This document shows, one piece after another, positions 406 to 17,257 of a stretch of DNA of 52,984 nt (within the stretch, counting starts at the first letter, position 1; the number at the start of each line of letters is the position of its first letter). Source of the DNA: an uncultured Nitrospiraceae bacterium (GTDB lineage Bacteria; Hydrogenedentota; Hydrogenedentia; Hydrogenedentales; SLHB01). The stretch is taken from positions 1-52,984 of the forward strand of contig CAZBQH010000254.1 in NCBI GenBank assembly GCA_964493915.1, in the 5' to 3' direction. The notes beneath the pieces were generated by a model, which saw only the letters and a program-made list of their open reading frames with translations, did not search any database and was not told where the DNA came from. Position numbers and translations under genes: made by a program.

Positions 406-501
406 CCAATGCTGGCAGGGTCGAAAGGGCAGGATTTTGGCAGCAACACTAGGGGCCTTCTGTGACATTCTCCTCCCTTTCCAATCCCCGAAGGACAACG
501 C

Positions 502-2247
502 TCAAGGGCCGATGCCGCCTTGCGCGTCTATAGCGCGCAAGGCGTCGCCGATCCATGCAAGAATCTGGGCTGAAGCATCCTGGACAGGCATAAGGCCCGA
601 TTCCTTTGTGTCGCGGCGTTTCCATTCGAAGAGGCCGTTGCGCAGGTTGCGCTCGGCCACGATGATGCAAAACGGTATGCCGAGCAGGTCTGCATCAGCG
701 AACTGAACACCCGGGCGCTCGTCGCGGTCGTCAAAGAGGACCTCGACGCCGGCGTTTTGCAGTTCGCTGTAAAGGGTATCGGCCGCGTTTTTCACCGCCT
801 CGTTCTTCAGCTTAAGCGCGTTAAGGTGCACCTGCCAAGGCGCAACCGAAATGGGCCACCGAGGCCCGAACTCGTCATGGTGCGCCTCCATGATTGAGCT
901 CATCAGGCGGCCGACGCCGATGCCGTAACAGCCCATGACAGGGGCATGGGATGCGCCCGACTCGTCGTTGTAAGTCATTCCCATCGCTTCGGTGTACTTG
1001 CTGCCAAGCTGGAAGATGTTCCCAACCTCGATGCCTCGGTTGAAAACGAGGGCTCCCTTCCCGTCAGGGCTTCCGTCGCCTTCCCGGGCCTCGACTACGT
1101 CCACCGTCTCGGTACCCGGGAGATCGCGTTCCAGATTGAAGTTCTTGTAGTGGTAGTCGACTTCGTTAGCGCCCGTGACAAGATTGTTCGACGCCTTCAC
1201 GGTATGGTCGACGACGATGCGCCACTTGCTCTGGTCGAGTCCCAAAGGCGATGCAAAACCCGGCTCAGCGCCCGCCGCCCGAATACGGGCTTCGGAGGCC
1301 GGTTCAGGGAATGTCTTTAAAATGCCAGCAAGCTTCGCCTCGTTTACGTCCCGATCGCCCCGGACTACAACCAACACGACTTTCCCCTCGGCATCGTGAT
1401 CGTAGAACACTGCCTTGGCCGTCTGACGCGTTTCAACTCCCAGGTAACCGGCGACCTCCTCGATGGTCTTGCAGTCAGGCGTGTGAACCTTCTCGAGGGG
1501 TTTGACTTCTTCAGGAAAAGCCTGCACGACGCCCTGTGCCACTTCGAGGTTGGCAGCATAGCCGCTTTGGTCGCTCATCACGATGGTGTCCTCTCCGACC
1601 TCTGTGAGCAGCACAAACTCATGCGCCACGCTGCCCCCCATCATGCCCGTGTCCGACTGAACGGCAACCACTTCAGGCACGCCCGTCCGGACGAAAATGC
1701 GCTGGTAGGCTTCGAAACACAGGCGATAGTAGCCTTCGAGGTCCTCGCGGGAAACGTGGAAGGAATAGGCATCTTTCATCGTGAACTCGCGGACGCGGAT
1801 GAGACCGCCGCGCGACCTCGGTTCATCTCGGAACTTGGTCTGGATCTGGTAAACCATAAACGGAAGCTGCGCATGGCTGCTTATCTCATTGCGGCAAAGG
1901 TGAACAACGGCCTCTTCATGGGTCATGGCAAGCACCATACCGTGGCCCGTGCGGTCGTTGAAGCGGGCAAGCTCGGGACCAACAGCAGCATACCGCCCCG
2001 ACTCGTCCCATAGCTCGCGGGGTTGAACCACGGGCATCAGAACTTCCTGGCCTCCGATGCGGTCCATCTCCTCGCGAATGATGCGCTCAATCTTCCGTAC
2101 AACGCGCAGCCCCGGCGGAAGAAGCGAGTAGATGCCGTTGGCTACCTGGCGCGCATAACCGCCCCGCAGTAGAAAGGCATGGCTGTTGAGCGCGGCCTCG
2201 GCCGGCCGCTCTTTGTATCGCATGCCCAGTAGTTGAGTCATTCGCAT
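502..2247 (-). CDS. proS: Prolyl-tRNA synthetase (bacterial type with INS editing domain)
   Basis: GIYSLLP, QIQTKFRDEPRSRGGLIRVREFTMKDAYSF, GIEVGNIFQLG, MGCYGIGVGR, anticodon domain DDRDERPG; start moved to MRMTQLLG (ATG 2247, GGAG upstream). Confidence 0.98.
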   Translation of the reverse strand: MRMTQLLGMRYKERPAEAALNSHAFLLRGGYARQVANGIYSLLPPGLRVVRKIERIIREEMDRIGGQEVLMPVVQPRELWDESGRYAAVGPELARFNDRTGHGMVLAMTHEEAVVHLCRNEISSHAQLPFMVYQIQTKFRDEPRSRGGLIRVREFTMKDAYSFHVSREDLEGYYRLCFEAYQRIFVRTGVPEVVAVQSDTGMMGGSVAHEFVLLTEVGEDTIVMSDQSGYAANLEVAQGVVQAFPEEVKPLEKVHTPDCKTIEEVAGYLGVETRQTAKAVFYDHDAEGKVVLVVVRGDRDVNEAKLAGILKTFPEPASEARIRAAGAEPGFASPLGLDQSKWRIVVDHTVKASNNLVTGANEVDYHYKNFNLERDLPGTETVDVVEAREGDGSPDGKGALVFNRGIEVGNIFQLGSKYTEAMGMTYNDESGASHAPVMGCYGIGVGRLMSSIMEAHHDEFGPRWPISVAPWQVHLNALKLKNEAVKNAADTLYSELQNAGVEVLFDDRDERPGVQFADADLLGIPFCIIVAERNLRNGLFEWKRRDTKESGLMPVQDASAQILAWIGDALRAIDAQGGIGP

Positions 2248-2698: not shown

Positions 2699-2893
2699 CG
2701 GCCCACACCGCCACCCGAACGCTTACACCTCAGGCGGACAGGCGCCCCGCCGGAGGTTTTCCCTCTCGAGGTTCTCCCTCCAGAATCATGCAGACCAGGA
2801 AACCTTTCCCTACCCGATGGGGATTGTCCCCAAGGAACTCAGGACCAAGGGACAGGGCAACGTCGTGCGTCGTCTTCCCATTCCATGAGACTC

Positions 2894-2922
2894 TGCATTT
2901 CCACTCTGCGTTTTGCTATACT
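2894..2922 (+). promoter_or_regulatory. Putative promoter of accA operon
   Basis: TGCATT-N17-TATACT with extended -10 TG; weak -35. Confidence 0.45.
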
Positions 2923-3059
2923 AAGTCGCTCTTGCGATAACCAACGAGCGTCCCTGCCCTTTGAAGTTTGCTGTGCGGCAGGAAATCGCGGGCTGACTTC
3001 ATGTTTTTCTGGAGCGTGGGCGGCGAACATTCGGAACACCCCTCGGGAGACCGGAGCAC

Positions 3060-4043
3060 TTGGCTGAGAATAAAAAGAGGTCGCGGCCTTTGCTTGAGCA
3101 GTGTTTGCCTTTCGAGCGACGGATTATCGAGCTTGAAGACCGCCTTGAACGGGCAGAAACAGACCCGGAACGGGAGACCATCCAGGTTGAACTGGACCGC
3201 GAACGGGAAGCCGTGTTCTCGAATCTGACGGCTTGGCAACGGGTGCAGTTGGCTCGGCATCCGCTCCGGCCGCGAATGCTCGATTACACTTCGCGTATCC
3301 TCGAGGACCTCTTTGAGCTGCACGGCGACCGTTACGCCGGCGACGACCCTGCAATGGTCTGCGGCTTGGGGCGCTTTCGTGGAAAGACGGTCATGGTCGT
3401 AGGCCAGCAGAAAGGCGTGACAACTGAAGAAAAGGTGACCCGCAATTTCGGCATGGCGCACCCCGAGGGTTACCGGAAGGCCTTGCGCATGTTCAAGCTC
3501 GCAGAGCGCATGAAGATTCCGGTGGTCACCTTTGTAGATACGCCTGCAGCCCATCCCGGCATCGAGGCCGAAGCACGCGGCCAAGGTCCGGCTATTGCTC
3601 AAAATCTCTACGAAATGATCCGCCTGAAGACCCCCATATTCTGCGCAGTTCTGGCGGAAGGAGGCAGCGGCGGCGCGCTTGGCATTGCCGTAGGCGACTG
3701 GATCGTGATGCTTGAACATGCGATCTATGTCATTTGTCCGCCCGAGCGATGTGCGGAGATTCTCTGGAGGGACGTCGAGAAGAAAGAGATGGCGGCTTCG
3801 GCCATGCGGGTGACGGCCCAGGACCTGCTGCGTCTCGGGGCAATCGACAAGGTGCTCGAGGAACCCCCGGGCGGCGCCCACCGCGATCCTGACGCTGTTG
3901 CAGCAACTCTTGCGGAGGAGTTGGACGTGTTCCTCTCCGACTGTGCTAAGGGCCGGTGGTCGCCCGAGAACCGTCAACGCAAGTTTCGCAAAATGGGAGT
4001 TTGGCGTGAAAATGGACGCCCCAAGACCTCTCCAGATTCGTGA
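3060..4043 (+). CDS. accA: Acetyl-CoA carboxylase carboxyltransferase alpha subunit
   Basis: LTAWQRVQLARHP, GDDPAMVCGLG, NFGMAHPEGYRKA, EGGSGGALGI. Confidence 0.97.
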   Translation: MAENKKRSRPLLEQCLPFERRIIELEDRLERAETDPERETIQVELDREREAVFSNLTAWQRVQLARHPLRPRMLDYTSRILEDLFELHGDRYAGDDPAMVCGLGRFRGKTVMVVGQQKGVTTEEKVTRNFGMAHPEGYRKALRMFKLAERMKIPVVTFVDTPAAHPGIEAEARGQGPAIAQNLYEMIRLKTPIFCAVLAEGGSGGALGIAVGDWIVMLEHAIYVICPPERCAEILWRDVEKKEMAASAMRVTAQDLLRLGAIDKVLEEPPGGAHRDPDAVAATLAEELDVFLSDCAKGRWSPENRQRKFRKMGVWRENGRPKTSPDS

Positions 4044-4326
4044 CGGGGTGGTCTATATGCATCTGAAGGTGCAGCCTAAGGCATCGCGAAATGCAGTTGC
4101 CTTCGGACCGGATGGGTCGATCCGGATAACGCTTACCGCCCCTCCGATGGAGGGAACGGCCAACCAGGCGCTGACCCTGTTTCTGGCAAAAACGTTGGGG
4201 GTGCCTAAGAGCGCCGTGACGCTGGTCAAAGGCCAGAAGTCGAGAAACAAGACCGTAACGATAAAAGATCTGACATTGGAAGAAGCGGAGAAGCGGCTCG
4301 GCTCGCAAGCTGTTCGGAGGATGTAA
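4012..4326 (+). CDS. yggU: DUF167/YggU family protein
   Basis: LKVQPKASRNAV, LTAPPMEGTANQAL, LVKGQKSRNK; start ATG 4012 (GTG 4006 possible). Confidence 0.88.
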   Translation: MDAPRPLQIRDGVVYMHLKVQPKASRNAVAFGPDGSIRITLTAPPMEGTANQALTLFLAKTLGVPKSAVTLVKGQKSRNKTVTIKDLTLEEAEKRLGSQAVRRM

Positions 4327-12673: not shown

Positions 12674-14152
12674 CTATTTGCGGGCATTCTCGAGAAAAGC
12701 GAAGGGGAAGGTTACGAGCTGACGCATCCCCGCCACCGTAGACACTTGCCTGACCCAGCGTCTCATCTCTGCGAAAATGGCCTGCCGCAACACTTCGTCG
12801 GTTACTTCCCCCTCTTCCCGAACAGCAAGCAAGCGGTGGAGGCTGTAGAGCCCGAAAACAAACCCAATCAGGAAGACAAAGTCCAGGCCCTTCAGATCAA
12901 GCGTACGCAGATTGAGGACGGGGCTGGCCCGAAGCGTATTAACAAAAGACAAAGTCATGCGCAACTCATAGGACTCGAAACTGTCTGCAGCCAGACCGGC
13001 CACAATAGGCGACACCGTTGCGGCAATGCCTGAAATGAGCGCGTTCATGGCGAGATAAGCTGCCGCTTTGCCATAGGGCGCCGACTTCAGAGCGAGGTTT
13101 CCAGCGCACAGGGCCACCCCTGCCGTCGAAATGCCCGACAGGACATGGATGGCAACGAGGAGCGGCACGGTGAGCATGTAGCGTTCCGGCATCGTGGTGA
13201 AGGGCCACATCAGGAAACTGAAAAAGAACAGCGGCACGCAGAACATCAGCACGGACTTATTGGAGAAGCGGTCGGCCAGGCGCCCCCACAAACCGAAGAA
13301 TAAGACGTTGAAAAGCTGACTGAGAACGGATAGGCCCAACACCCAGGCCATGCTCATCCCGAGCCGGCGAATCAAATAGACTGCGAAAAAGGGGCCTGCG
13401 AAGTTCACGGCAAAACTCCACACCCCCAGAAAAACCAGCAGGTGCCGGTAATTGGCATCCCGGAGAGGCTTTATCAGCACTTCGCGAAGGGACGTATCCC
13501 TTTCGTCGGGCATACGCGGTTCGGGAATGCGCCCAATGAAGAATATCGATATAAGACCCGCCGCGCTCGCGATGACGAAAAGAAAGCCGTAGGCCTCCAT
13601 CGCTTCCCCCGCCCTCTTCTCGTATACGTCCACACCAATGCCGCCTAACAAACTGATGACCGCGCCGAACAACGTCGCCAAAGCTAGTCGTTTGGCAAAA
13701 AAACTGCTCATACGGTGTTCGGGGATTAAGTCGCGGATCCAGGAGTTGAAGGCGCATCCACCCACGGCGCCAAAGCCGAAATATGAAAAGAGCAGGAGCA
13801 GGAAAACCGCGAGCCGGTGGTCGGACGGCACAAGCCAAGGCAGCAGCGCCACGAAGATAAGCGAAACCCGGCTGACCGTTGTGGAAACTAACATCAATAC
13901 CTTGCGCAACCGGATGTGCTCGACGAGGTAGATCGCGGGGATCTGGAGGATCTGCGACACGGGACCCACAGCCGCGAGAAGACCGATCGCCTTGTTTGAG
14001 GCGCCCATCAAGAGGGCGTAAGCGATGAGAAACGCCCCTGTGCTGAGAATCGTCATGACCTGCGCCGATGCTCCGTCGTAAAGAAGCATCCTGAGGCCTT
14101 TGTCGATATCGGTCTCGCCCAGGACTTCTTTGGGCTTAAGCCACTGGAACAT
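12674..14152 (-). CDS. MFS transporter
   Basis: About 12 hydrophobic segments; WGRLADRFSNK loop motif; start moved to MFQWLKP (AAGGAAG upstream). Confidence 0.88.
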   Translation of the reverse strand: MFQWLKPKEVLGETDIDKGLRMLLYDGASAQVMTILSTGAFLIAYALLMGASNKAIGLLAAVGPVSQILQIPAIYLVEHIRLRKVLMLVSTTVSRVSLIFVALLPWLVPSDHRLAVFLLLLFSYFGFGAVGGCAFNSWIRDLIPEHRMSSFFAKRLALATLFGAVISLLGGIGVDVYEKRAGEAMEAYGFLFVIASAAGLISIFFIGRIPEPRMPDERDTSLREVLIKPLRDANYRHLLVFLGVWSFAVNFAGPFFAVYLIRRLGMSMAWVLGLSVLSQLFNVLFFGLWGRLADRFSNKSVLMFCVPLFFFSFLMWPFTTMPERYMLTVPLLVAIHVLSGISTAGVALCAGNLALKSAPYGKAAAYLAMNALISGIAATVSPIVAGLAADSFESYELRMTLSFVNTLRASPVLNLRTLDLKGLDFVFLIGFVFGLYSLHRLLAVREEGEVTDEVLRQAIFAEMRRWVRQVSTVAGMRQLVTFPFAFLENARK

Positions 14153-14257
14153 AGAAAAAGAGCTTCCTTGAATTCGGAGAGAAATCCCCACGACGACGCT
14201 CTTGGCCTCCAAAAGGCCCGAGCATCCCGCCTCTCCTTCCGTATCGACTGGCCCTAT

Positions 14258-14287
14258 AGCATAAACATGCGATGCCCGACGGGGCAA
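14258..14287 (-). promoter_or_regulatory. Putative promoter of MFS gene
   Basis: TTGCCC-N18-TATGCT. Confidence 0.4.
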
Positions 14288-14444
14288 GCCATCCGTTGGC
14301 ATACGCGAACCCAGAGCAGAAACGGCCCAGCTTGGCCCGATCAGGGAATGTCCGCTTCGTCCAGAAGGCAAAGGAAATCCCACTCGTGCCGACTCTTTTC
14401 ACTGGACTTATAACACTTGTTTGCACGCTAGGCGCGGTTTCGCC

Positions 14445-14472
14445 TAAAGTTATACCTCGTTGGCGCCGATAA
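14445..14472 (+). promoter_or_regulatory. Sigma-28 (FliA/SigD) promoter
   Basis: TAAA(GTTA)-N16-GCCGATAA, matching the consensus TAAA-N14-16-GCCGATAA, 58 nt before flgM. Confidence 0.85.
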
Positions 14473-14530
14473 ACGAGATGGATGAGTGGGCTGTAAGTAG
14501 GGATCCCAAAAACCTTGAGGAGATAACTGG

Positions 14531-14827
14531 ATGGAAGGCGTTAGAGGAATTGGGGGCGTGCCAGAACCCAATCCTGAACGCCCGTCAGGTGCGCGTGACC
14601 CTCAACGCAGCGAAAGTCAGAGCGATCAGGTCAAGGATGGGGTGCGCATCAGCTCCGAGGCGCAGGAAGTCTCGAATGTCGCCCGTCTTCTACAGGCCGC
14701 AGAGGGCGATGAGGATGTCCGCATTGAAAAGGTCGAGGAGGCCAGGCGGCACATCGCAGAAAAAACGTATAAACTGCCGGAAATGGTAGCGGAAATAGCG
14801 CGGAAACTAAGCAAATTGCTGCCCTGA
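14531..14827 (+). CDS. flgM: Anti-sigma-28 factor FlgM
   Basis: 98 aa; DGVRISSEAQ...DVRIEKVEEARRHIAEKTY...EIARKL, the FlgM C-terminal pattern; RBS GAGGAG; sigma-28 promoter upstream. Confidence 0.85.
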   Translation: MEGVRGIGGVPEPNPERPSGARDPQRSESQSDQVKDGVRISSEAQEVSNVARLLQAAEGDEDVRIEKVEEARRHIAEKTYKLPEMVAEIARKLSKLLP

Positions 14828-14838
14828 CGAGAGCTGAT

Positions 14839-15240
14839 GTGTCTGGAAAGGCGAGGAAACAGAGCGCGGCTGGTGTCGCGCTCTTGGTATTTCTGGCAAG
14901 TGAGGGCTGCCGGTTTTTGCCTTGGTCCGCGCCGGATTATGTCGAGGAGGGGATTGCCTGTTGGTATGGTGACCCGTACGATGGCCGGCGCACCGCTTCC
15001 GGCGAGCGATTTCAGAAGGACGAGCTGACTGCAGCCCATCGCGTGCTGCCTTTCGGGACGATTGTGGCCGTGCAAAACCTGCGCAACGGGAGAGCAGTCA
15101 AGGTCCGTATCAACGACCGCGGCCCTTTCGTTGGAGGCCGGATTATCGATTTGTCCGAGAAGGCGGCACGCAAACTGGACATGATCGACGAAGGCCTTGT
15201 CCCATGCCGGATTGAGGTCGTTAAGTGGGGAAAGCAATAG
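14839..15240 (+). CDS. rlpA: RlpA-type (DPBB) lytic transglycosylase lipoprotein
   Basis: Lipoprotein-like signal ending EGC; WYG, TASGERF, TAAHRVLPFG, VRINDRGPF, RIIDLS. Confidence 0.92.
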   Translation: MSGKARKQSAAGVALLVFLASEGCRFLPWSAPDYVEEGIACWYGDPYDGRRTASGERFQKDELTAAHRVLPFGTIVAVQNLRNGRAVKVRINDRGPFVGGRIIDLSEKAARKLDMIDEGLVPCRIEVVKWGKQ

Positions 15241-15253
15241 GGCGGAACTGTCG

Positions 15254-16603
15254 ATGCCGACACTTTCCGTGGTGATGATCGTCAAAAACGAGGCGCACTG
15301 CCTCGGAAACTGTCTTACAAGCATAAAGGAGATCGCCGACGAGCTTGTTGTTGGCGATACCGGCTCGACCGACGGCACGCAAGACTTGGCCCGCTGCTTC
15401 GGCGCCCGCGTCCTCCCCATCCCATGGCAAGATGATTTCAGCTTGGCCCGCAACGCCGTACTGTCGCAAGCAGGCGGTGACTGGCTCTTGCACATGGATG
15501 CCGACGAGGTGCTGGATACGGGCAGTGCGGCCCGGGTTCGCGCCATTGTGGACGTCGACGGCCTCGGCGCAGACGGCGTCCGGGCCGATGCCGTCGAGGT
15601 GGGCTTAGCTAACTATTGTAACGATCCGCGGGCATGGCGATGGGCGCCCGCAGCGCCCGGCGATCCCATGGCTAAGGGTTGGGCAGGCTACATTCGCACG
15701 GATCTCCTGCGTCTCTTCCGCAACGGACGCGGATTTGCGTATCGCGGCGCAGTTCACGAGAACATCACGCAGAGCGTCCAGGAACGCCACGGCATCGTCA
15801 GACAAGCCAGTTTAATGATTCACCATTACGGGTACGAGCGCAACAGCCCCCGCGGCGCAGCCAAGGCGGATCTCTACCTAGCAATCGGCCAGGCAGAAAC
15901 AGCGGACAACCCCGAGGATCCGAGAGCATGGCATGAGCTCGCGGAACAGCTCGTTGCGGCGGGCCGGACCGCGGAGGCCGAAGCGGCTTGCCGCAGAGCG
16001 CTTTGCGTAGCGCCGCTCCACTTGGGCGCGGCAACAACGCTCGCCAATATTTTGCTGAACCGGGGCGATCTGGATCAGGCTGCCGATATTCTCGCCGCAC
16101 TCGAGGCCGGGGGCGTCCGCGCGCCCCACGTGCAGGTGGCTCTTGGGGCCATTGCCCTGCGAAAAGGGCAACCGTCAGAGGCGCGGCGCCGGCTCGAAAG
16201 CGTTGTGACGGGGAATTCCCCGCAGATCATGGCCCATCTCGAACTCGCGCGCGTCTACGACCAACTTGGCGAAACAGACCAGGCAAGAAGGCAATTAGGT
16301 GAGGCGCTGGCGGCCGCTCCGTCCCTCGACGAAATCAGGCAACGGATCGAAGCCCACCGTCTCCGCGACGAGGGCGAACGTTGTTTTCATGAAGGCGACG
16401 CGCACAAAGCGCTCGCTTGCTTTGCCAAGGCGCTGGCATTGGATCCAGAGGATGCAGTAATCCATAACGACCTCGGGGCGGCTCTCTACGCAATTAACGA
16501 GCAGGAACGGGCATCGCGCTGTTTCGAGCAGGCCTTGAGGTTGGCGCCGGCTATGGCGCAAGCAGCGGCGAACCTGACGCAGTTAAGGGCCCGCAACCGC
16601 TAA
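15254..16603 (+). CDS. GT2 glycosyltransferase with C-terminal TPR repeats
   Basis: LSVVMIVKNE, VVGDTGSTDGT, WQDDFSLARN, MDADE, RLFRN, VHE, IHHYGY; several TPR-like helical repeats. Confidence 0.92.
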   Translation: MPTLSVVMIVKNEAHCLGNCLTSIKEIADELVVGDTGSTDGTQDLARCFGARVLPIPWQDDFSLARNAVLSQAGGDWLLHMDADEVLDTGSAARVRAIVDVDGLGADGVRADAVEVGLANYCNDPRAWRWAPAAPGDPMAKGWAGYIRTDLLRLFRNGRGFAYRGAVHENITQSVQERHGIVRQASLMIHHYGYERNSPRGAAKADLYLAIGQAETADNPEDPRAWHELAEQLVAAGRTAEAEAACRRALCVAPLHLGAATTLANILLNRGDLDQAADILAALEAGGVRAPHVQVALGAIALRKGQPSEARRRLESVVTGNSPQIMAHLELARVYDQLGETDQARRQLGEALAAAPSLDEIRQRIEAHRLRDEGERCFHEGDAHKALACFAKALALDPEDAVIHNDLGAALYAINEQERASRCFEQALRLAPAMAQAAANLTQLRARNR

Positions 16604-16612
16604 TCATCCCAT

Positions 16613-17257
16613 TCACTTCGTTGCGGGTCCGCTCTTCTGTGGGCGTTTTCCCATAGACATTTGGGTAAACGCACCCGCAAGCGTCATAAGCGCCCAGAAA
16701 GCGAACAGAAACCACTGCTCCGTGTTAACTTGGGTTTCTGACGCAAAAACCTCGAGTGATTCCGAACCCATTACCATGTAGGCCATGGTCCCGACGCTCA
16801 GCCAAGCGCCGATTGCAGCCGTAGCGAGAATAAGGATGGGCCGCTCGACAAGCAAAGCGATTACTCCGCCGACAGCGCCGACACCCAAGACGACGAGCGG
16901 ACTTGCGTTCATAAAGTCCTCGAGAGGCAGGCGATAAGCGATCAGGGCGAATCCGAGGAAACCGAGGAGAAACACGCCCGCATAGAAAACAAAAAACAAT
17001 GCGAACGCACCCGCGACGCCGCCCACGATAAGACCGACCACCATGTAGAGTTGGTTGGCGTTCGACGCCCACCCGGCGAGGACGGCAGCAACCGCTCCCG
17101 CCAAGACAAAACCGGTCACGACGATAAGAAGCTTGATAACGCGGTAGCCAAAAAAACAATAGACAAGCCCGGTTACCAGAGCTAAGGCCAGCGCTGCCGC
17201 CGCCTGGGACACTGGCGCCGTCCTCAGTTGCCCGAGAACTTCCCGAAGCGAATCCAA
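16613..17257 (-). CDS. DUF4203 (TM7S3/TM198-like) membrane protein
   Basis: GLVYCFFGYR motif, 6-7 Gly-rich TM segments. Confidence 0.75.
   Translation of the reverse strand: MDSLREVLGQLRTAPVSQAAAALALALVTGLVYCFFGYRVIKLLIVVTGFVLAGAVAAVLAGWASNANQLYMVVGLIVGGVAGAFALFFVFYAGVFLLGFLGFALIAYRLPLEDFMNASPLVVLGVGAVGGVIALLVERPILILATAAIGAWLSVGTMAYMVMGSESLEVFASETQVNTEQWFLFAFWALMTLAGAFTQMSMGKRPQKSGPATK

Follow-up and report, generated by a model that had tools for sequence, protein, structure and literature searches.

A probable late flagellar flgM-rlpA-glycosyltransferase unit with a conserved terminator in signal-peptide codons in a Hydrogenedentota bacterium

We analysed a three-gene unit headed by flgM on a contig of 52,984 nucleotides (nt) from an uncultured Hydrogenedentota bacterium. 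This contig (C254) is the window referred to throughout, and it is part of a metagenome-assembled genome (MAG, G000) of 5.58 Mb in 613 contigs. All three genes of the unit lie on the + strand. The first is flgM for an anti-sigma-28 factor of 98 aa (14531-14827), the second an rlpA-like gene with a GTG start (14839-15240, 133 aa), and the third, with an ATG start, encodes a family 2 glycosyltransferase (GT) with tetratricopeptide repeats (GT2-TPR; 15254-16603, 449 aa). Only 11 nt separate flgM from rlpA and 13 nt separate rlpA from the GT2-TPR gene. Ahead of flgM lies a sigma-28 (FliA) promoter (14445-14472, +) with a -35-like element TAAAGTTA (14445-14452), a 12-nt spacer and a -10-like element GCCGATAA (14465-14472), and a Shine-Dalgarno GAGGAG (14517-14522, +) was read from the sequence 8 nt 5' of the flgM ATG. 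A terminator-like element (14861-14894, +) occupies rlpA codons 8-19 and consists of a hairpin (14861-14884) and an imperfect T-run TGGTATTTCT (14885-14894). The closest public loci belong to Candidatus Hydrogenedentota MAGs. A first-pass annotation, made from the window alone, had described the promoter and the two short gaps correctly, and had proposed the unit as a candidate for an undescribed system. Our analysis indicates instead that this transcription unit is very probably of the normal late flagellar type (class III) and belongs to a bacterium of the Hydrogenedentota that has flagella.

The first-pass annotation had also stated that no other flagellar gene is present in the 53 kb, and this was confirmed, as Pfam gave no flagellar family among the 32 other predicted open reading frames (ORFs) scanned in the window. 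It had also considered that, if the genome lacked flagella, the sigma-28/FlgM switch might control envelope remodelling and FlgM might be released in another way. Searching the whole genome, we found flagellar genes on other contigs. FlhA is encoded on C357 (901 bits) in an apparent fliR-flhB-flhA-flhF-flhG group, in which FlhB and FlhF were confirmed by Pfam. The gene for FliA (260 bits against a cut-off of 189.6) is on C259 directly after a Pfam-confirmed FliN-type gene, with a fliM-looking gene upstream. FlgJ, FlgN and FlgL are encoded one after the other on C392, preceded by flgH- and flgI-looking genes as judged by position and sequence, and FlgK, FliD and a flagellin of 271 aa were found on C607, C168 and C281, respectively. 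The genome in this way holds the export gate, C-ring, rod, hook-associated proteins, cap and filament in addition to FliA and FlgN. FlhA was found in 38 of the 41 genomes of the order, own genome included. The GC content of the flagellar contigs is the same as that of the window, 0.59-0.60. The host organism is flagellated. Only if the flagellar contigs were contaminants of the bin could a repurposed switch in a cell without flagella still be considered; the idea is otherwise refuted and we regard it as next to impossible, and the sigma-28 motif before flgK and fliD described below speaks against it as well. The unit looked like an orphan because the flagellar genes are scattered in this lineage and the assembly is fragmented. 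What had been put forward as an undescribed system is a late flagellar sigma-28/FlgM unit of the ordinary kind, which includes two accessory genes typical of the lineage.

The promoter motif TAAA-N15/16-GCCGATAA matched the window only at 14445-14472, and none of 100 dinucleotide-preserving shuffles contained a match. Transcription is predicted to start near 14480. A genome-wide scan, proposed in the first-pass annotation as a way to define the regulon, gave three strict matches in 5.58 Mb compared to about 0.5 expected from base composition, and these precede the window flgM, a flgM paralogue on C39 and flgK on C607. For the conservation of the promoter and the terminator we used 30 loci, that of our genome and those of 29 relatives, and these cover no fewer than 10 families of the order. 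The form TAAAGTTT-N11/12-GCCGATAA was kept about 80-90 nt 5' of the flgM start in 25 of them. A position weight matrix made from the flgM promoters of the relatives ranked flgK first in our genome (27.9), followed by the window flgM (27.3), a site at a contig end on C467 and a flgM-like gene on C35 (24.8 each), the flgM paralogue on C39 (24.2), a site before an unannotated ORF on C396 (21.0) and fliD (20.3). The seven best sites in the genome thus include flgK, the window flgM, two other flgM paralogues and fliD, and the top-scoring sigma-28 sites are the classical late flagellar set. The C467 site (4149-4175, +) reads TCAAGTTT-N11-GCCGATAA and lies about 240 nt from the contig end, so that the gene that would be driven by it is cut off.

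The product of flgM matched Pfam PF04316 with 30.7 bits (cut-off 25), and the same family was matched by 18 of 19 aligned FlgM orthologues and paralogues. When a profile of these 19 sequences was compared with the PDB, the top match was a FlgM chain (9wsf_B, E 1.2e-3); with the single sequence only spurious matches were obtained, and the profile was needed to reach FlgM. FlgM matches were present in 36 of the 41 genomes of the order (own included), the best ones being full length with 40-51% identity. A cognate sigma-28 is at hand, with FliA in the genome and flgM behind a conserved sigma-28 promoter. By analogy with its family, this FlgM would bind sigma-28 and be exported via the flagellar type III apparatus.

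Our genome encodes three FlgM-like paralogues, located at 14531-14827 in the window, at 476-778 (-) on C39 and at 2774-3097 (-) on C35, with a mutual identity of 24-31%. Each of the two extra copies has a sigma-28-like site ahead of it (858-832 on C39; from about 3158 on C35). The C39 protein was marginal in Pfam at 24.4-24.5 bits and the C35 protein had no match. A terminator follows the C35 gene 24 nt past its stop, and at least two FlgM-like paralogues are present in most relatives.

The hairpin behind flgM, AGAGCGCGGC-TGGT-GTCGCGCTCT, begins thirty-three nt past the flgM stop codon and has a 10-bp stem, a 4-nt loop and a dG of -18.2 kcal/mol. The + strand of 14400-16700 contains no terminator-like hairpin besides this one, the tail UGGUAUUUCU of which is imperfect. 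Taken alone, the hairpin does not exceed the chance expectation for this region (3 sites as compared to 2.8 expected), nor does the 120-nt flgM-rlpA junction as a whole fold with unusual stability (z = -0.85); the case for a terminator lies in the local hairpin together with its conservation. We defined an equivalent hairpin as one that is situated at most 150 nt past the flgM stop, has a stem of 8 bp or more and is followed by 10 nt with 5 or more T. Such a hairpin with its T-run was found in 22 of the 30 loci, usually 20-40 nt past the stop, compared to 5 of 502 control windows (Fisher p ~8e-28). It occurs whatever comes next, be it rlpA, the GT gene or nothing. In a gapless alignment of the 13 rlpA-linked loci, 98.5% of the cells were paired and 7 of the 10 pairs showed compensatory double changes. 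This level was reached by 0 of 500 shuffles, and slid controls paired at 35-61%.

In the rlpA-linked loci the hairpin and the T-run lie within the rlpA frame and encode the hydrophobic core of the lipoprotein signal peptide, for example MKLFRSAAVVVLLFSFVSAGC. In our genome as well as in about a dozen relatives, the signal-peptide codons of the following gene in this way contain the terminator. As the rlpA start lies upstream of the terminator, 11 nt past flgM, rlpA and the GT2-TPR gene could be expressed from the sigma-28 promoter by read-through only. A conserved intrinsic terminator thus separates flgM from the main part of the downstream genes, and the unit is therefore no simple equimolar operon. 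The interrupted U-tract in our genome suggests a leakier terminator, with more read-through than in the relatives.

Next to the promoter and terminator, the gene order was compared in the relatives. Among the 29 relatives examined, 13 had rlpA directly 3' of flgM and 12 had the GT2-TPR gene 3' of flgM, directly or past rlpA; 9 had neither gene there. Using whole-genome coordinates, and E < 1e-100 as the threshold for a GT2-TPR orthologue, flgM and the orthologue were adjacent in 17 of the 32 genomes holding both, in at least seven families. The orthologue was present in 32 of the 38 genomes with FlhA and in none of the 3 without it (Fisher p = 0.008). Two of the latter, G007 and G034, are at least 97% complete; neither FlgM nor the GT2-TPR orthologue nor a member of the flgM-linked RlpA clade is present in them, and they have kept the housekeeping RlpA paralogue. 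The synteny that the first-pass annotation had proposed to test is real for both genes, and it is absent in about half of the genomes. The other reading offered in that annotation, in which late flagellar expression is coupled to a glycosyltransferase and an enzyme acting on the wall, is backed by the conserved synteny, the phyletic co-occurrence and the GmaR homology presented below. In six loci (L024, L025, L031, L039, L041 and L045) the GT2-TPR gene directly follows flgM after a gap of 88-128 nt, and this gap contains a strong terminator, the T-run of which is long; the GT gene in these loci may have its own promoter or may depend on read-through.

The RlpA-like protein consists of a signal peptide with Cys24 followed by a DPBB lytic-transglycosylase domain, with 88 bits for DPBB_1 (PF03330; cut-off 28.8) and 141.5 bits for TIGR00413 (cut-off 82.15). 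The lipobox in its N-terminus MSGKARKQSAAGVALLVFLASEGC is imperfect; judged by eye, the orthologues have canonical ones (...FVAGC, ...SAGC, ...MSGC). Among solved chains, P. aeruginosa PA4485 is the closest to it (4avr, E 7e-28, 92 residues aligned), and the RlpA-like protein resembles this stand-alone DPBB type. With RlpA of P. aeruginosa and E. coli it shares the DPBB lytic-transglycosylase domain, the NDRGP and IDLS segments and the lipoprotein-type signal peptide. These proteins carry a C-terminal SPOR septal-targeting domain, whereas Pfam gave DPBB_1 only and no SPOR domain in the 133-aa protein, which moreover belongs to a separate flgM-adjacent clade. The NDRGP and IDLS segments, which we take to carry the catalytic Asp of the DPBB fold, are intact in both RlpA paralogues of our genome.

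RlpA similarity in the relatives was bimodal. A clade with 50-64% identity, here called RlpA-F, was found in 15 relatives and our genome, and it is located beside flgM wherever the context could be read; a second copy in G017 (on C28) is the one match in this range whose neighbourhood is outside the context count. The paralogue with 38-49% identity is near-universal, with our own copy on C425 (43089-43508), and is kept in non-flagellated genomes. From the two clades and the flgM linkage it follows that the window rlpA is a flagellum-associated duplicate, and, with the flgM-linked clade missing from about half of the relatives that have flagella, it is an accessory one. FlgJ of our genome (C392 18283-18591, +) is a protein of 102 aa with the rod-binding domain only and no muramidase domain, and flgN follows 33 nt later. 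A separate enzyme, encoded elsewhere, must therefore open the wall for the rod. That the window rlpA has this essential role is argued against by its late sigma-28 promoter and by the absence of the clade in half of the flagellated relatives. A late accessory role, either in remodelling at the basal body or stators or in cell separation coupled to motility, is the one that we favour, at a little under even chance. For the idea that the flgM-linked RlpA makes up for a muramidase domain missing from FlgJ, the stop-to-stop frames of FlgJ in the relatives, which are too noisy a measure of length, varied from 109 to 1060 aa and showed no pattern with the presence of RlpA. The titles and abstracts found in a search that combined RlpA and FlgJ did not suggest a link between RlpA and the flagellum.

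In B. subtilis the sigma-D regulon includes flagellin, FlgM and the peptidoglycan hydrolases LytC, LytD and LytF, and motility is in this way coupled with cell separation. The hydrolase families involved are other ones than here, and in our unit the wall enzyme is encoded within the flgM unit itself, behind a terminator.

The third gene encodes a protein with a GT-A domain at about residues 1-200 (15254-15853) followed by a TPR domain at about residues 200-449, and no signal peptide. Pfam gave 65.5 bits for Glycos_transf_2 and matches to many TPR families, the latter at about 225-465 of the 468-aa ORF form that was scanned (19 is subtracted for the 449-aa numbering). The TTG at 15197, from which the longer form would start, was rejected since the orthologue alignments start at MPTLSV. 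The DxD motif, D82-A83-D84 (15497-15505), was invariant in 12 homologues from at least 4 phyla, as were MIVKNEAH, DTGS.D.T, ARN, HE, H.G and the HHYGY motif. Best among natural PDB sequences was the GT domain of Listeria GmaR (22ao_A, E 6.5e-27), with SunS/ThuS behind at about 1e-15; in bits, GmaR scored 98 and SunS 61. About half of the first 90 residues aligned with GmaR are identical, and a second block, LR.F.N...HE...HHYGY, is shared. The AlphaFold2 model (pLDDT 92.1) has 14 helices past residue 199. The gene is single-copy in our genome. Outside Hydrogenedentota, a flagellin gene was located within 4 kb in 23 of 71 homologous loci, often immediately adjacent. Such distant homologues beside flagellin were found in Atribacteria, Acidobacteria, Calditrichota, Syntrophobacteraceae, other Desulfobacterota-type MAGs, Ignavibacteria, Lachnospiraceae and Listeria. 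Full-length homologues were among those of Atribacteria, Acidobacteria, Calditrichota, the Desulfobacterota-type MAGs, Lachnospiraceae and Listeria.

GmaR is a protein of 637 aa with a GT, a TPR, a linker and an antirepressor domain, of which the GT domain O-GlcNAcylates flagellin, and it has a second role in sequestering the repressor MogR (PMC9638930). In common with our protein it has an N-terminal GT2/GT-A domain followed by TPRs, a cytoplasmic location and a gene among flagellar genes (PDB 22ao), but in Listeria this gene is linked to flaA and here to flgM. FlmG of Caulobacter crescentus follows a shared logic as a modular flagellin glycosyltransferase, in which the TPR domain binds flagellins and the GT domain modifies them in the cytoplasm (PMC7591256). 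In FlmG, however, the TPR domain is N-terminal and the catalytic domain is of the GT-B type and transfers pseudaminic acid, so that the catalytic part is analogous and not homologous. Because it is homologous to GmaR, has flagellin-adjacent homologues, is linked to flgM and co-occurs with flagella, the GT2-TPR protein most likely O-glycosylates flagellin in the cytoplasm, which we consider probable. Recognition of flagellin by the TPR domain would fit the findings on FlmG and the proposal for GmaR. Directly after flgL, a second GT2 glycosyltransferase without TPR is encoded on C392 (20166-21140, +; 103.6 bits), and it may also be part of a flagellar glycosylation pathway.

As the gene is linked to flgM in this order and to flagellin in other phyla, and as GmaR is a precedent for a dual function (PMC9638930), the GT2-TPR protein might be kept beside flgM for a regulatory reason, binding FlgM or sigma-28 via its TPRs and tuning the checkpoint. 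The TPR region does have weak, sub-threshold matches to the type III secretion chaperone families SycD/LcrH and SctY. The regulatory function of GmaR, however, is carried by its linker and antirepressor domains of about 190 aa (PMC9638930), and these are not present in the 449-aa protein. A MogR_DNAbind match was not found in our genome, a weak piece of evidence as the same model matched no control genome either, and in about half of the genomes the gene is no longer linked to flgM. We consider such a regulatory role very unlikely.

Several points weigh against reading the unit as a late flagellar one. The MAG is fragmented and is 94% complete with an estimated contamination of 4%. The 98-aa protein, which the first-pass annotation had proposed to check against a FlgM model, passed with PF04316 and failed with the stricter NCBIfam equivalog TIGR03824 (28.4 bits against a cut-off of 40.75), a shortfall that is in keeping with a divergent lineage and not in conflict with the Pfam match. 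The flagellin gene on C281 has about 200 nt of upstream sequence before the contig ends, and no sigma-28 motif was found there; the flagellin promoter either lies past this end or depends on a different sigma factor. Both accessory genes are dispensable for flagella, as the flgM-linked rlpA is missing in about half of the flagellated relatives and the GT2-TPR orthologue in six of them. Some Hydrogenedentota have the GT2-TPR gene away from flgM with no sigma-28 motif near. GT-domain homologues in non-flagellated taxa (cyanobacteria, Moraxella) indicate that flagellin is not the only possible substrate of the family, and the top full-length fold matches in Foldseek were SunS/ThuS (E 4e-17, TM ~0.55). 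Co-transcription of the three genes and the efficiency of the terminator, moreover, are properties that we infer.

A part of these points, together with the strong conserved terminator after flgM, would suit a reading in which the genes are coincidental neighbours. Here flgM would be monocistronic, and rlpA and the GT2-TPR gene would be envelope genes not related to motility, with their own promoter inside flgM and a non-flagellar protein or peptide as acceptor for the sugar, as in SunS/ThuS-like or adhesin/pilin glycosylation; the fold over both domains closest to SunS/ThuS, the homologues in non-flagellated taxa and the GT genes located elsewhere in several Hydrogenedentota would agree with this. 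But the start of rlpA is upstream of the terminator and 11 nt from flgM, and a scan for sigma-70-type promoters predicted none in 14300-16900, with the reservation that the promoter consensus of the phylum may differ and that an internal promoter is therefore possible. The flgM-linked RlpA clade was never found away from flgM where the context could be read, and the GT orthologue is absent from the non-flagellated relatives. We find this reading improbable.

The similarity to SunS/ThuS (PDB 7msn, 7msk) was considered separately, as these enzymes share a GT-A domain and a helical-repeat substrate-binding domain with our protein, and the shared two-domain fold implies an architecture that acts on protein or peptide substrates. 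A SunS-family peptide S-glycosyltransferase was nevertheless rejected. The SunS model TIGR04195 gave 74 bits, below its cut-off of 350, the fold is all that is shared, and the genomic context here is flagellar; no glycocin precursor or exporter was found near the gene, the neighbours of which are flgM, rlpA and a TM198-like gene.

The late flagellar reading would work as follows. RNA polymerase with FliA would start at TAAAGTTA-N12-GCCGATAA and transcribe flgM, and FlgM, judged by its family, would hold sigma-28 inactive until the hook-basal body is complete and would then be exported by the type III apparatus. Past the flgM stop, transcription would reach the conserved GC-rich hairpin and T-run. 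Most transcripts would probably end there as monocistronic flgM mRNA, and those reading through would carry rlpA and the GT2-TPR gene. The outcome would be much FlgM, a stoichiometric regulator that is consumed, and little of both enzymes, at a lower and fixed ratio. The TPR domain may then hold flagellin before its export while the GT-A domain transfers a sugar, possibly N-acetylhexosamine, and the RlpA-like lipoprotein may remodel peptidoglycan late and linked to motility, at the flagellar base, at the stators or in daughter-cell separation. With the sigma-28/FlgM checkpoint of Salmonella, E. coli and Bacillus the unit shares the near-consensus TAAA-N15/16-GCCGATAA before flgM, the same motif before flgK and fliD, FliA in the genome and a 98-aa FlgM with a C-terminal family match. 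It differs from it in that flgN does not follow flgM but lies in flgJ-flgN-flgL on another contig, in the three flgM paralogues with sigma-28-like sites, and in rlpA and the GT2-TPR gene behind a terminator.

The unit is flanked by two genes on the opposite strand, a major facilitator superfamily (MFS) transporter gene (12674-14383, -) and the TM198-like protein gene (16613-17257, -). The other ORFs of the window that could be named are housekeeping, sugar-use or nucleotide genes. Pfam named, among others, proS, ispD, ispF, an RNA methyltransferase, recN, a class II ribonucleotide reductase, thyX, a nucleoside transporter, thiD, sugar ABC transporter parts, GH116, a LacI-type regulator and hisS. 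An ORF of 109 aa in another frame over flgM (14460-14789, +) starts within the -10 region of the promoter, is Arg-rich and antisense-like, and is almost certainly spurious. Elsewhere in the genome, a secreted protein encoded beside flgK (C607 1903-2535, +) has a PEP-CTERM-like tail IPEPASMTLMGLGAGALALRRYLKKRS, and exosortase-type sorting appears to be used in this genome.

Four aspects of the unit are new in detail. These are the flgM-(rlpA)-GT2-TPR arrangement kept across an order of Hydrogenedentota, the covarying terminator that follows flgM and is embedded in signal-peptide codons, which the first-pass annotation did not contain, the flgM-bound RlpA paralogue clade and the GmaR-like enzyme without the regulatory domains. 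A false lead is removed, as an organism with ordinary flagella needs no orphan or repurposed sigma-28 switch to account for the unit. For Hydrogenedentota, it is now possible to state the FliA promoter consensus, TAAAGTTT-N11/12-GCCGATAA, as well as the late flagellar regulon. The GmaR-like GT2-TPR enzyme is a likely flagellin glycosyltransferase, and its flagellin-adjacent relatives in many phyla extend this class well beyond Firmicutes. The terminator within signal-peptide codons represents a compact dual coding that would set expression ratios within one transcription unit. We tentatively suggest, as a possibility that is less likely than not, that RlpA-F is a dedicated, sigma-28-timed flagellar peptidoglycan enzyme, and that its dose and that of the flagellin glycosyltransferase are set by the terminator in its signal-peptide codons. 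If this is true, RlpA-F would be the first flagellum-specific member of the RlpA/DPBB proteins, in a lineage with a FlgJ that has no muramidase domain, and the same approximately 35 nt would at once act as terminator of flgM, as attenuator of read-through and as export signal of the lipoprotein.

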